From: Chitinophagaceae bacterium | GTDB taxonomy: Bacteria; Bacteroidota; Bacteroidia; Chitinophagales; Chitinophagaceae | DNA: 46,087 bases | Direction: 5' to 3' | NCBI GenBank assembly: GCA_035550155.1 | Contig: DASZPW010000159.1 | Coordinates: forward strand, 1 to 46,087 | Shown: piece after piece, positions 41,287 through 44,230 of the stretch | How positions within the stretch are numbered: position 1 is the stretch's first letter | How the letters are laid out: each line of letters opens with the position of its first letter | Notes under the pieces: generated by a model | What the model was told of the DNA's origin: nothing | Databases searched by the model: none | What the model saw: the letters and a program-made list of their open reading frames with translations, nothing else | Position numbers and translations under genes: made by a program

Positions 41287-43353
41287 ATGACAGATATATC
41301 CATACTTCTAAAAGCATATCGCCTCATGAGCCAGGTGAAAACTATGGCTGAGACGTATGATGCCAATCGAACTGTTTGCAAATATGTTCATTCCACTTCC
41401 CGCGGACATGAAGCGATTCAATTAGCGACTGCATTTCAGCTGCAGCCACAGGATTTTGTCAGCCCTTATTACCGCGATGAAAGTTTGTTATTGGGTTTGG
41501 GGTTTACCCCATATGAATTAATGCTTCAATTGCTGGCAAAAGCCGATGATCCATTTACAGATGGCAGAGAATATTATTCTCATCCTAATTACAAGGGAGC
41601 AGATAAACCATCAATTACACACCAAAGCAGCGCTACAGGTATGCAGGCTATCCCAACAACAGGAATTGCACAGGGAATTCAATACCTGGAAAAAATTAAT
41701 TCACCTGAATTGAAAAAAGGAATATCAGGAGAATTACCAATAGTGGTCTGTTCATTAGGTGATGCAAGTATTACAGAAGGTGAAGTAAGCGAAGCATTTC
41801 AATTTGCAGTATTGAAGCAATTGCCTATCGTGTATTTGATCCAGGATAATAATTGGGGTATCAGTGTATCGGCAGAAGAAGCACGAGCCATGAATGCTTT
41901 TGAATTTGCAGCAGGCTTTAAAGGAATGAACCGGGTACAGGTGGACGGAAGCGATTTTGAAGCTTCTTATGATGTTATAAGAAAAGTTTTTGATTTTGTT
42001 CGTAAGGAGAGGAAACCATATTTAATTCAGGCTACTGTTCCGTTATTAGGTCATCACACCAGCGGAGTGAGAAAAGAATTTTACCGGTCTGATGAAGATT
42101 GGGCAGAGCATTTGGAAAATGACCCAGGCCCAAAACTGAAAAAAAGACTTTTGGAAAGAGGGGTTAATGAAAAAGAAATTCAATTGATAGAAAAAGGCGC
42201 CGCAGCATTAGTGGCTGATGATTTTGCAAAAGCTGTGAAAGCACCCGAACCTGATCCCACTACTATCGAAGATCATGTTTTTGTTCCTACGCCAGTTGTA
42301 GAAGAAAAAGGAAATAGAAATCCATCCGGTGCCGAAAAAATTATTATGGTTGATGCGGCTTTATTTGCTATCCGTGAAATTATGCAAGAACATCCCGAAG
42401 CGATTTTGTACGGACAGGATGTTGGTAAAAGATTGGGTGGTGTATTTAGGGAAGCAGCGACATTGGCCGAGCAATTCGGCGATCACCGGGTATTCAATAC
42501 AGCAATACAGGAAGCATATATTGTCGGTTCTACTGTGGGAATGAGTGCTGTTGGATTAAAACCAATTGTTGAAGTTCAGTTTGGCGATTACATTTATCCC
42601 GGGTTGAATCAGCTGGTAACAGAAATTTCGAAAAGCTGTTATCTCAGTTGCGGAAAATTTCCTGTTTCAATGATCCTTCGTGTTCCGGTAGGAGCGTATG
42701 GTGGTGGAGGACCGTATCACAGCGGTTGTGTGGAAACAACGCTTCTCTCAATAAAAGGAATTAAAGTAGCATATCCTTCAAACGCTGCAGATATGAAAGG
42801 ATTGATGAAAGCTGCATTTTATGATCCGAATCCTGTTGTAATGCTCGAACATAAAGGGCTTTACTGGAGCAAAGTACCCGGTACTGAAGATGCCAAAACG
42901 ATAGAACCGTCGGGGGATTATATAATTCCTTTTGGCAAAGCAAATATTGTGTTGCATGCAGATACCGATGCAATTGATAATGGAGAAAGTTGTTTGGTCA
43001 TCACGTACGGAATGGGTGTGTATTGGGCAAAAGCTGCTGCAAAGAATTTTAATGAACAGGTAGAAGTCCTTGATCTGAGAACCTTATTTCCTCTGGATGA
43101 AGAGCTGATTTTTGAACGGGTAAAACTGCACGGAAAATGTATAGTGCTCACGGAAGAGCAGCAAAACAATTCTTTTGTTGAAGCTCTAGCCGGAAGAATT
43201 TCAAAAAATTGCTTTCAATTCCTTGATGCCCCGGTCGAAGTGCTTGGTGCATTGAATGTGCCCGCTGTACCAATGAATATGGGGCTGGAGCATGCCATGT
43301 TACCTAATGCAGAAAAGCTGGCATCAGTGATAGAGAAGTTGTTGAATTATTAA
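41287..43353 (+). CDS. Fused alpha/beta E1 component of a 2-oxoacid dehydrogenase (TPP-dependent)
   Basis: Track ORF starts at 41263; ATG 41287 gives MTDISILLKAYRLM. The N-half is E1-alpha-like (YYRDE..., GDASITEGEVSEAFQFA). The C-half is E1-beta/transketolase-like (GQDVGKRLGGVFREA...FNTAIQEAYIVG...EVQFGDYI). Confidence 0.85.
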   Translation: MTDISILLKAYRLMSQVKTMAETYDANRTVCKYVHSTSRGHEAIQLATAFQLQPQDFVSPYYRDESLLLGLGFTPYELMLQLLAKADDPFTDGREYYSHPNYKGADKPSITHQSSATGMQAIPTTGIAQGIQYLEKINSPELKKGISGELPIVVCSLGDASITEGEVSEAFQFAVLKQLPIVYLIQDNNWGISVSAEEARAMNAFEFAAGFKGMNRVQVDGSDFEASYDVIRKVFDFVRKERKPYLIQATVPLLGHHTSGVRKEFYRSDEDWAEHLENDPGPKLKKRLLERGVNEKEIQLIEKGAAALVADDFAKAVKAPEPDPTTIEDHVFVPTPVVEEKGNRNPSGAEKIIMVDAALFAIREIMQEHPEAILYGQDVGKRLGGVFREAATLAEQFGDHRVFNTAIQEAYIVGSTVGMSAVGLKPIVEVQFGDYIYPGLNQLVTEISKSCYLSCGKFPVSMILRVPVGAYGGGGPYHSGCVETTLLSIKGIKVAYPSNAADMKGLMKAAFYDPNPVVMLEHKGLYWSKVPGTEDAKTIEPSGDYIIPFGKANIVLHADTDAIDNGESCLVITYGMGVYWAKAAAKNFNEQVEVLDLRTLFPLDEELIFERVKLHGKCIVLTEEQQNNSFVEALAGRISKNCFQFLDAPVEVLGALNVPAVPMNMGLEHAMLPNAEKLASVIEKLLNY

Positions 43354-43374
43354 TGCCCAAAAGTCTAAATCAAT

Positions 43375-43382
43375 TATCTTTG
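43375..43382 (+). promoter_or_regulatory. Candidate -7 box (TATCTTTG) in front of the tRNA cluster
   Basis: TATCTTTG ends 11 nt before the first base of the tRNA-like fragment at 43394. Confidence 0.45.
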
Positions 43383-43393
43383 CTGCCCATTTT

Positions 43394-43473
43394 GGCGGGG
43401 TAGCTCATCCCGATAGTAATCGGGAGGTAAGAGCGTTGGATTCATATCCGCCGTTGGCGGACACGGGTTCAAG
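43394..43473 (+). pseudogene. tRNA(CAT)-like 5' fragment with two embedded stem-loops, truncated within the T-loop
   Basis: ggcggggtagctca and ggtaagagcgttggattcata match the intact tRNA downstream with 1 mismatch. The D-loop 'gtt' is replaced by hairpin tcccgatagtaatcggga. After the anticodon 'cat' comes hairpin tccgcc-gtt-ggcgga, then cacgggttcaag, and then unrelated A-rich spacer. Confidence 0.6.
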
Positions 43474-43488
43474 AAAAGTAAATAAAAT

Positions 43489-43562
43489 GGCGGGATAGCT
43501 CAGTTGGTAAGAGCGTTGGATTCATAACCCAAAGGTCTCGGGTTCAACTCCCGATCCCGCTA
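43489..43562 (+). tRNA. tRNA with anticodon CAT (elongator Met, or Ile2 if lysidine-modified)
   Basis: A 74-nt cloverleaf folded by hand. The acceptor stem is ggcggga/tcccgct, with G1-U72. The D-arm is gctc-agttggtaa-gagc. The anticodon arm is ttgga-ttCATaa-cccaa, with A31-C39 unpaired. The variable loop is aggtc and the T-arm is tcggg-ttcaact-cccga. The discriminator is A and no CCA is encoded. C11:G24 argues against an initiator. Confidence 0.85.
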
Positions 43563-43591
43563 CAGGAAAAGGCTCATTAAAGGGCCTTTTT

Positions 43592-43834
43592 ATGTTTTAT
43601 ACGGTCTACATATTATTTTCTGAAGAACATAATAAACATTATACCGGGTTTACTTCAAATATGGAGTTGAGGTTGAGATCACATAATGAGTTTGGTAAAG
43701 GTTGGACTGCACGATACCGGCCCTGGAAGATTATTTATCGTAAAGAGTTTACTTCAAAAAAAGAAGCAATGGATTATGAACGATGGCTAAAATCCGGATT
43801 AGGAAGGGACTTTATCAAATCTCTTCCTCATTAA
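43592..43834 (+). CDS. Small GIY-YIG nuclease-family protein (URI-domain-only, COG2827/UPF0213-like)
   Basis: 80 aa with TVYILFS...HYTGFTSNMELRLRSHN...RPWKIIYRKEFTSKKEAMDYERWLK. This gives the GIY/YIG strands, the conserved Arg, and Glu in the E-x-x-h-K helix. Confidence 0.8.
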   Translation: MFYTVYILFSEEHNKHYTGFTSNMELRLRSHNEFGKGWTARYRPWKIIYRKEFTSKKEAMDYERWLKSGLGRDFIKSLPH

Positions 43835-43842
43835 ATTCTCCG

Positions 43843-43893
43843 TGGATTCATATCCGCCACAGGCGGACATGGGTTCAAGTCCCATCCCCGCTA
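43843..43893 (+). pseudogene. tRNA-like 3' fragment (anticodon-loop remnant, stem-loop, T-arm and acceptor 3' strand)
   Basis: The sequence is tggattcata-tccgcc-aca-ggcgga-c-atggg-ttcaagt-cccat-ccccgct-a. Its first 37 nt repeat 43437-43473 at 33/37 identity. The acceptor 3' strand ccccgct pairs with ggcgggg at 43394-43400. Confidence 0.6.
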
Positions 43894-43898
43894 CATAT

Positions 43899-43924
43899 AA
43901 GGCTCATATTTGAGCCTTTTTTAT
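43899..43924 (+). terminator. Rho-independent terminator closing the tRNA/GIY-YIG cluster
   Basis: aaggctca and tgagcctt form a perfect 8-bp stem with a 4-nt loop, followed by ttttttat. A degenerate homologue (aaaaggc...gcctttt) follows the intact tRNA at 43567-43590. Confidence 0.75.
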
Positions 43925-44230
43925 TTATTATCATTCACTAATTTTTTTCTGCACATTGATGCCATTATATTTTGGATTTCTTCACTTATAGAATTTTTAA
44001 AAAAATAGTTGGTGATCAGGTCCATAAATTAAACGGTTTCAGTTTTAAATGTTTTCAATCTTTTTTGATTAAAATCACAACCGTAACTAATGCCTGTCAG
44101 TAAAAACATATACTGGAAAAAGTAGCTTTGAAAAAGAAATCTGTTAAAACAGGTTTTATCTGCACATTATTCATAATAAATCGTAAGAAAAAATATTGGT
44201 TATAATTTTCAAAAGCAAGTAAAATTCTAA

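Follow-up and report, generated by a model that had tools for sequence, protein, structure and literature searches.

How does a tRNA gene come to lie in two pieces on either side of another, intact tRNA gene and a nuclease gene? This arrangement is found at positions 43375-43925 of a contig from a Chitinophagaceae bacterium (DASZPW010000159.1, assembly GCA_035550155.1; the whole stretch of 46,087 nt that we analyzed is called the window), where an intact tRNA(CAU) gene and an open reading frame (ORF) for an 80-amino-acid (80-aa) GIY-YIG nuclease are enclosed by two tRNA-like fragments. An initial annotation, made from the letters of the sequence, offered two explanations: a selfish cassette of nuclease plus replacement tRNA that had inserted into a tRNA gene, or unequal recombination between tandem tRNA modules. 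The first gained support from relatives in which the gene is uninterrupted (L187), holds only the inner tRNA (L186), or carries a decayed cassette (L189), and from dozens of further genomes. With a probability of about 60%, we propose that a homing-type selfish cassette, made up of a minimal nuclease gene and a spare tRNA(CAU), invaded the resident tRNA(CAU) gene downstream of an E1 dehydrogenase gene.

The tRNA(CAU) site in the window and in close relatives

Close relatives were located through the neighboring E1 dehydrogenase gene, and the orthologous site was then compared, leaving out L188 (which ends inside the tRNA) and L190 and L191 (in which no tRNA follows the E1 gene). We looked for an uninterrupted allele of the outer type and for an allele lacking the insert, and L187 and L186, respectively, supply them. 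In L187, the closest relative (E1 identity to the window, 92%), the same promoter as in the window is followed by an intact, canonical tRNA of the resident type (R-type) and a terminator, with neither the ORF nor the hairpins described below. This tRNA is the allele of the window's outer fragments, with G7/C66 and the T arm ATGGG-TTCAAGT-CCCAT. The same promoter in L186 (E1, 90%) precedes a tRNA that is identical at 74/74 positions to the window's inner tRNA, again without ORF or hairpins. L189 (E1, 85%) retains the promoter, a decayed 5′ pseudo-copy with a decayed D-loop hairpin, the same spacer, the inner tRNA (74/74 as in the window) and a decayed 3′ pseudo-copy, and its ORF is deleted to ~18 nt of the 3′ end. 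ORFs of the more distant L040 (E1, ~83%) and L036 (E1, 74%) are truncated or frameshifted. There is, therefore, presence/absence polymorphism at a defined site, with L186 and L187 empty, the window filled, and L189 a relic; the near relatives together display empty, occupied, decayed, and allele-swapped states of the site.

Because L187 carries the outer allele intact at the same promoter, the outer fragments of the window are recognized as the two halves of the ordinary resident 74-nt tRNA(CAU). The halves overlap (tRNA positions 1 to 57 and 27 to 76), and this replaces the ~94-nt tRNA-like paralogue that the initial annotation had taken for the target: both the D-loop hairpin and the anticodon-side hairpin are missing from the uninterrupted allele in the alignment with L186 and L187. 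The 5′ pseudo-tRNA (43394-43473; R-type positions 1 to ~57; all features of the cluster are on the forward strand) is truncated in the T loop and carries two hairpin substitutions. It occupies the exact place of the intact tRNA in L186 and L187 and shares G7 and the T-loop sequence TTCAAG with the L187 allele. Its first substitution is an 18-nt D-loop hairpin, TCCCGATAGTAATCGGGA (43408-43425), in place of the D-loop GTT/GGT, and the second is an anticodon-side hairpin (PAL), TCCGCC-GTT-GGCGGA (43447-43461), in place of the 3′ anticodon stem and variable loop (ACCCNNAGGYC). The 3′ pseudo-tRNA (43843-43893; R-type positions ~27 to 76) has the hairpin TCCGCC-ACA-GGCGGA at 43853-43867, and past this hairpin its T arm, acceptor strand, and discriminator are identical to those of the intact L187 tRNA. 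Neither ARAGORN nor Rfam RF00005, even at E ≤ 10, finds a tRNA in the outer fragments, and the sole Rfam match touching them is a weak match to the model of transfer-messenger RNA (tmRNA) at 43841-43886.

Between the fragments, the only tRNA called by ARAGORN and Rfam is an intact elongator-type tRNA(CAU) at 43489-43562/3 (69.4 bits), which confirms the intact gene of the initial annotation. We refer to this replacement tRNA as the I-type allele. It differs from the outer R-type allele at 12/74 positions, positions 43-51 among them, and is thus a different allele, one that accompanies the nuclease gene. The tRNA(CAU) genes of the two empty relatives likewise differ at 12/74 positions (L186:4551-4624 versus L187:3893-3966), including several compensatory pairs, although the sequences on either side, with promoter and terminator, share ~95% identity; the exchange apparently affected the tRNA body alone. 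The I-type allele rides with the cassette and also stands alone in L186 inside R-type flanks, which fits co-conversion but does not prove it.

The edges of the cluster are native. The motif TAnnTTTG occurs once within 43300-44000, as the Bacteroidota-type −7 promoter box TATCTTTG at 43375-43382; the position of this sole box, like the coordinates of all other parts, was as first annotated. The box, followed by the spacing attatctttgctgcccatttt and then tRNA position 1, is also present in the empty relatives L186, L187, and L188 and in the relic L189, and we regard it as the native promoter of the resident tRNA gene. At the other end, the native downstream flank begins after a distal terminator (43899-43918/24) and aligns with the L186 flank 3′ of the empty site. 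The 15-nt A-rich spacer between the 5′ pseudo-tRNA and the intact tRNA (aaaagtaaataaaat, 43474-43488) is conserved in the relic L189, where it reads aagaaaaaataaaat, and is missing at both empty sites, L186 and L187; it is part of the cassette.

Downstream of the intact tRNA, a hairpin at 43566-43591, first described as weak, scores as terminator-like (10 pairs, then a T run), is homologous to the native L186/L187 terminator, and ends 1 nt before the ORF start codon. The cluster hence has two terminators, at 43566-43591 and 43899-43924. The suggestion of one transcript, made from a single promoter and a single strong terminator, keeps its single promoter box and is weakened by the terminator-like hairpin between tRNA and ORF; release of the nuclease mRNA through RNase P/Z processing, put forward with it, would be conjectural. 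A gap of 8 nt separates the ORF end from the 3′ pseudo-tRNA. As originally noted, segments 43437-43473 and 43843-43879 form a 37-nt direct repeat with 33/37 identical positions, and the module of tRNA 3′ end plus terminator is present twice in the locus. Remnants of an older ORF were also sought in the empty sites and in the window's distal flank; pairwise alignments were suggestive, and an nhmmer profile of 37 ORFs returned nothing significant, so that this candidate was dropped.

The nuclease and its recurrence across genomes

The 80-aa product of the ORF (43592-43834) matches the Pfam GIY-YIG family PF01541 (E = 1.7e−16; 60.7 bits, with a cut-off of 22.6), as the initial annotation had it, and consists of the catalytic core with no additional domain. 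The catalytic Tyr, Tyr, Arg, His, and Glu (Y6, Y17, R27, H31, and E63) are invariant across 32 to 44 homologues. In a sequence search of the PDB, the nearest solved structures are UPF0213 proteins (BH0048 and EF2693; 1zg2 at 7.9e−5), with the SLX1 nuclease domain at 0.007 to 0.05. An AlphaFold (AF2) model built from 36 homologues (pLDDT, 95.8) is matched by Foldseek to Slx1 (TMq, 0.65 to 0.72; root mean square deviation, ~2 Å) and to I-TevI and UvrC at E = 0.5 to 3 only (I-TevI, ~0.5). No informative match to the ORF product was found in PADLOC, NCBIfam, or PHROGs. The ratio of nonsynonymous to synonymous substitution rates (dN/dS) is 0.07 to 0.12 among pairs with unsaturated synonymous divergence, tandem copies within one locus included, which indicates that the ORF is conserved under purifying selection. 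Given dN/dS of ~0.1, the conserved catalytic residues, and the Slx1-like fold of the model, the gene is predicted to encode a functional minimal nuclease of the Slx1/UPF0213 branch.

Members of that branch of structure-specific nucleases (BH0048, EF2693, and YhbQ-like proteins) are the best matches in both sequence and structure and share with the ORF product the catalytic residues and the form of a minimal stand-alone domain. A 2006 survey described the prokaryotic stand-alone Slx1 homologues as minimal-domain proteins, proposed that they are vertically inherited repair enzymes, and placed the selfish GIY-YIG enzymes in another, UvrC-like lineage (PMC1564403). In contrast, the Slx1-type gene described here behaves genomically as a selfish element.

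Relatives of the protein, searched with one genome per species, identify 46 loci, mostly in Chitinophagaceae with some in Sphingobacteriales and Flavobacteriia. In most of them, a tRNA(CAU) lies 30 to 110 nt upstream of the ORF on the same strand, and the cassette architecture is repeated in ~40 Bacteroidota loci besides that of the window. The common plan is a promoter, 0 to 7 tandem 5′ pseudo-tRNAs, one intact tRNA, and 1 to 3 units of terminator, ORF, and 3′ pseudo-tRNA, the terminator typically abutting the ORF's ATG. A tRNA or pseudo-copy precedes the ORF in 37 of the 39 copies with assessable upstream sequence, and a hairpin-bearing 3′ fragment follows within 130 nt in 35 of the 41 copies with assessable downstream sequence; 0 to 3 partial copies lie downstream per locus. 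The 5′ pseudo-copies have no 3′ acceptor strand and often end in the T loop. Every locus that holds an intact tRNA has exactly one intact anticodon arm. Because the same plan is present in the isolate genomes of Ferruginibacter yonginensis CECT 8289 (L021) and Terrimonas sp. R1 (L009), the arrangement is not an assembly artefact. The biggest array, at L021:1577-3340, comprises seven 93-nt 5′ pseudo-tRNA repeats, one intact tRNA, and three 369-nt ORF units, the final 3′ pseudo-copy having its T loop swapped for another hairpin; L027 has six repeats.

The cassette is patchily distributed. An unbiased metagenome scan for the anticodon arm of the tRNA returned 101 assessable loci, of which 5 are filled and 96 empty, and identical tRNAs, or tRNAs that differ by 1 nt, occur in both states. 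In the filled locus L057, the 5′ pseudo-copy sits in the exact tRNA position of the syntenic empty locus L058. ORFs are truncated or frameshifted in L009 and L031 as well as in the L036 and L040 relatives mentioned above, and two ghost loci (L062 and L095) keep a 5′ pseudo-copy and no ORF. Metagenomic contigs (L187, L188, and L174-L179) end in or beside the tRNA and cassette, often at the same base across samples. The repeats probably break short-read assemblies, and the frequency of the cassette may therefore be underestimated. The promoter-tRNA-terminator segment is inverted in the empty locus L112 (10977-11097) relative to the filled loci L018 (2851-2971), L009, and L010, with both flanking genes being the same; because of this inversion, L112, although syntenic with L018 and L009, was not used to define insertion boundaries.

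Copy number also varies within a species. Contigs of one species (that of protein P0044) have one or two ORF units, as in L180 versus L181, and the difference maps to the repeated T-arm/acceptor segment. This change in copy number, the near-identical tandem copies of the ORF in existence, and the duplicated modules of tRNA 3′ end and terminator are what would be expected if the whole locus arose passively, by tandem duplication and unequal recombination of tRNA-terminator modules, decay of the spare copies, and carriage of the ORF as a passenger. As an account of the origin, we judge this very unlikely: close relatives have a single tRNA and no tandem modules, the 12/74 differences between inner and outer tRNA include compensatory pairs and so do not mark recent duplicates, the ORF is under purifying selection, and the same ORF family and the same hairpin substitution are found on different tRNAs in different phyla. 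The unequal recombination considered in the initial annotation thus fails for the origin of the arrangement and holds for later changes in copy number.

The other tRNAs include, within Bacteroidota, the initiator tRNA, whose pseudo-copies bear the same hairpin in L014, L025, L026, L030, and L034; the initiator and elongator-type tRNAs have the segment YTCATAACCCNNAGGTC in common. On the short contig L014 (2890-3344), which has no intact tRNA, the repeating unit is a full-length initiator-type pseudo-tRNA with the hairpin, followed by the ORF. Distant relatives of the protein (38 to 48% identity) in candidate-phyla bacteria show the same design on tRNA-Gly (L042, L167, and L169) and tRNA-Ser (L170-L173). 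In these loci, the ORF is flanked by an intact tRNA on one side and a partial copy on the other, and the 5′ pseudo-copy is the 5′ leader of the ORF transcript. In the partial copy, a GC hairpin such as TCCCGC-N3-GCGGGA or CCCCGC-N3-GCGGGG replaces the anticodon arm and, in some cases, also the T loop or variable arm. Other distant GIY-YIG relatives, from candidate phyla and Cloacimonadota, adjoin tmRNA genes with a duplicated tmRNA 5′ leader. In L039 (2916-2951 and 3333-3371), a second copy of the tmRNA leader with the first tmRNA bases is present across the ORF from the original, a distant relative adjoins the tmRNA gene in L041, and a 78-nt repeat occurs in three copies around the ORF in L038 (1197-1812).

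GC hairpins in the pseudo-tRNAs

The hairpin TCCGCC-N3-GGCGGA, which the initial annotation did not single out, occurs twice in the window (43447-43461 and 43853-43867), versus 0.02 occurrences expected by chance. In nearly all Bacteroidota pseudo-copies, the post-anticodon segment ACCCNNAGGTC (3′ anticodon stem and variable loop) is swapped for TCCGCC-N(2-7)-GGCGGA-C. Between Chitinophagia and Flavobacteriia the stem hardly changes, and the center varies in sequence and length, usually being uniform among the copies of one locus. Hairpins also take the place of D loops, D arms, or T loops in pseudo-copies. Across lineages, the substituting hairpins belong to a few families: TCCGCC..GGCGGA, TCCCGAT..ATCGGGA, and TTCGCC..GGCGAA, with TCCCGC..GCGGGA in candidate-phyla bacteria. 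At the equivalent site, a hairpin of the window's D-loop family is found in the L020 and L095 5′ pseudo-copies, and a decayed one in L189.

Two origins of the hairpin were considered and rejected. Fold-back of the local tRNA does not account for it, given that neither arm is present in the parent tRNAs and that the same hairpin is joined to different T arms and acceptor stems. The sequence CCGCGG recalls the GIY-YIG restriction enzymes Eco29kI and Cfr42I. A hairpin center with CCGCGG serving as a site of that kind was discarded, since loop variants lose the site and keep the stem.

Hairpins of these families also occur away from tRNA genes. Two intergenic hairpins of the window, TCCCGATATTTATCGGGA at 696-713 and TCCCGATAGCTTCGGGA at 795-811, belong to the family of the D-loop insert (43408-43425), with 3 matches in the window versus 0 expected; this suggests that a short GC hairpin family is dispersed through this genome. 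Solitary intergenic TCCGCC-N3-GGCGGA hairpins lie far from any tRNA fragment in L092 (1141-1155) and L112 (6840-6854), and a solitary TCCCGAT-N4-ATCGGGA hairpin lies in intergenic DNA of L112 (6701-6718); the tRNA(CAU) sites of both loci are empty. A system resembling that of repetitive extragenic palindromic (REP) sequences and their RAYT transposases might produce such a pattern, the hairpins being small mobile or templated elements that spread with the help of the Slx1-type nuclease, and pseudo-tRNAs being favored landing sites as the loops of a dispensable structured gene. The lone intergenic hairpins are in keeping with it, as is the replacement of D, anticodon, or T loops by a few hairpin families in different lineages. 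Against it, only 2 solitary copies occur in ~450 kb of empty loci, and there is no known mechanism for elements as short as 14 to 18 nt. The anticodon-side substitution, moreover, starts and stops at the same points throughout, as if it had been inherited together with the cassette and not inserted repeatedly. As a full explanation, spread of this kind is highly doubtful, although it may be part of the story.

The hairpins could alternatively act as RNA. The 37-nt repeat and both pseudo-halves fold far better than shuffled sequence (z = −3.3 to −6.4). In the two copies of the repeat (43437-43473 and 43843-43879), GGATTCAT can pair through G·U with ATGGGTTC around the GC hairpin (z = −3.4 and −6.4); this extended pairing is tied to the particular T-arm sequence of the repeat and is not general across loci. 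Two stem variants are compensatory (TCAGCC/GGCTGA in L062 and TCTGC/GCAGA in L148). Four others are single-sided, all of them C-to-T changes that yield G·U on the sense strand. This pattern and the L062 variant are suggestive only. Formal testing for covariation is not decisive: pairing holds in 97% of cells, with a single compensatory pair, and 54 of 500 shuffles reach an equal result.

These features bear on the idea that the locus is a host-serving or addictive module, in which a nuclease with a cellular or toxin-like role tied to tRNA(CAU) has hairpin-bearing pseudo-tRNA transcripts as RNA partners. The pseudo-tRNA RNA might be a type III antitoxin or inhibitor, or might stabilize or process the nuclease mRNA, with arrays selected for RNA dosage. 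The order of promoter, tandem RNA-like repeats, terminator, and ORF, most evident in the seven repeats of L021 and the six of L027, resembles ToxIN-type loci; a dN/dS of ~0.1, the sense-strand G·U pairs left by the single-sided stem changes, folding beyond that of shuffled sequence, and the position of the 5′ pseudo-copy as transcript leader in candidate-phyla loci would all agree with such a module. We nonetheless consider it unlikely. Many loci lack any 5′ repeats, formal covariation of the hairpin is weak, and the ORF is sporadic among close relatives and decays, unlike a needed function. Furthermore, the protein matches no defense or toxin family (no ToxN/AbiQ-type match in PADLOC or NCBIfam), and its predicted fold is the GIY-YIG fold of the Slx1 DNA nuclease.

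Proposed mechanism of a probable homing-type cassette and its parallels

We propose the following cycle for the selfish cassette. Transcription that reads through the tRNA terminator directly ahead of the start codon would yield small amounts of the nuclease. The enzyme would break tRNA(CAU) genes that lack the cassette, at or close to the anticodon and variable region, where the hairpin is substituted. The differences between the I-type and R-type alleles at positions 43-51 could render the cassette's own tRNA resistant. The break would be repaired by recombination with a cassette-bearing copy, for which either the flanking genes or the conserved ends of the tRNA would act as homology arms, and the repair would copy the nuclease gene and its tRNA into the broken site. 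The pseudo-halves would escape recutting as the hairpin has replaced the target segment, and the cell would stay viable thanks to the incoming tRNA. The repeated segments (T arm, acceptor, and terminator) could later recombine with one another and so expand, contract, or delete ORF units, giving a cycle of invasion, decay, and loss in which tRNA alleles may be swapped between lineages. Invasion history, the rule of one intact copy, copy-number dynamics, decay and loss, and purifying selection are the observed part of this mechanism; cleavage specificity and the role of the hairpins are what we infer.

Several points weigh against this proposal. The 80-aa core has no DNA-binding domain to supply specificity. 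In its anticodon and variable segment, the intact tRNA of the cassette is of the same kind as the empty sites, and self-cutting must therefore be avoided by allele differences or low expression. The strong conservation of the hairpin stem is not explained by simple immunity, and hairpins of the same families stand alone in intergenic DNA and may exist independently of the cassette. A function useful to the host would also be compatible with the strong purifying selection and the long retention. The clustering of the proteins is too poorly resolved for switches of target to be counted and does not clearly track tRNA type (initiator or elongator), and no copy of the cassette was found in the viral contigs of IMG/VR, where a transfer vehicle might have been seen.

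The hairpin substitution is, so far, a conserved feature without an explanation in the cassette model. We raise, as a conjecture that we consider unlikely, that the GC hairpins are the element by which the Slx1-type nuclease finds or processes its substrate: either hairpins in single-stranded DNA or RNA are recognized, or the hairpin-bearing pseudo-tRNA transcript serves as a targeting partner, and the activity writes hairpins into the loops of attacked tRNAs. The use of REP hairpins by RAYT proteins may be a parallel for hairpin recognition by a nuclease, and the flanks of a pseudo-tRNA transcript match the local tRNA.

The cassette shares features with several known systems and coincides with none of them. 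REP/RAYT systems also have short GC hairpins flanking a single nuclease-like gene, and ToxIN loci also consist of tandem structured repeats, a terminator, and an ORF, whereas the folds are unrelated (HUH and ToxN versus GIY-YIG) and tRNA fragments make up the repeats here. Some homing endonucleases of group I introns target tRNA anticodon regions, as does I-Ssp6803I in cyanobacterial tRNA-fMet. Enzymes of this type are likewise selfish nucleases aimed at the anticodon region of a CAU tRNA, with an insertion that destroys the target; the target is rescued there by RNA splicing and here, where there is no intron, by a second intact tRNA gene.

Integrase islands and prophages in tRNA genes restore an intact tRNA and leave a partial copy as a direct repeat at the far end (PMC9897764). 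The restored tRNA and the leftover partial copy are common to the cassette and such islands. In the cassette, however, no tyrosine or serine recombinase is present, the GIY-YIG gene being the only ORF between the tRNA fragments; the whole insert is ~430 nt, has partial copies on both sides with a 37-nt overlap, brings a complete tRNA instead of a 3′ end alone, and carries hairpin-substituted copies.

The closest experimentally studied parallel is SegB, a free-standing GIY-YIG homing endonuclease encoded in the tRNA cluster of T-even phages. SegB cuts inside tRNA genes at a T-loop-like motif. It promotes the joint conversion of tRNA genes that flank it and, in a recombination-dependent manner, the formation of tandem tRNA-segB repeats (PMC2330249; PMC13096335). 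In both cases, a GIY-YIG gene lies among or next to tRNA genes; the cassette also forms tandem units of tRNA fragment and ORF, and many of its 5′ fragments break off in the T loop. SegB differs in belonging to the I-TevI/Seg lineage with a C-terminal DNA-binding domain, which the 80-aa Slx1/UPF0213 core lacks, and in being phage-borne. No relatives turned up in IMG/VR, nor any match in PHROGs; the cassette is carried on the chromosomes of Bacteroidota and of candidate-phyla bacteria, together with a spare tRNA and hairpin-substituted pseudo-copies.

Full-text literature searches found no published description of the cassette. Selfish nuclease elements of the homing type are known; the Slx1-type minimal enzyme, the rescue by a spare tRNA, and the hairpin-substituted pseudo-copies seem to be new. 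If the proposal is correct, a selfish nuclease can enter an essential RNA gene without an intron or integrase by bringing a spare copy of the gene. This would account for a 16% difference between tRNA(CAU) alleles amid ~95% identical flanks, as the cassette would swap tRNA genes horizontally, and it draws attention to one origin of tRNA fragments, and of breaks in assemblies, among Bacteroidota genomes. To our knowledge, stand-alone Slx1/UPF0213 nucleases, although widespread and with structures solved 20 years ago, have no known function, and the cassette, if real, would give them their first biological context. Should the nuclease be directed by the hairpins, the cassette would stand for a new class of mobile systems that depend on hairpins, with members in both Bacteroidota and candidate-phyla bacteria, and the UPF0213 family would gain a function.

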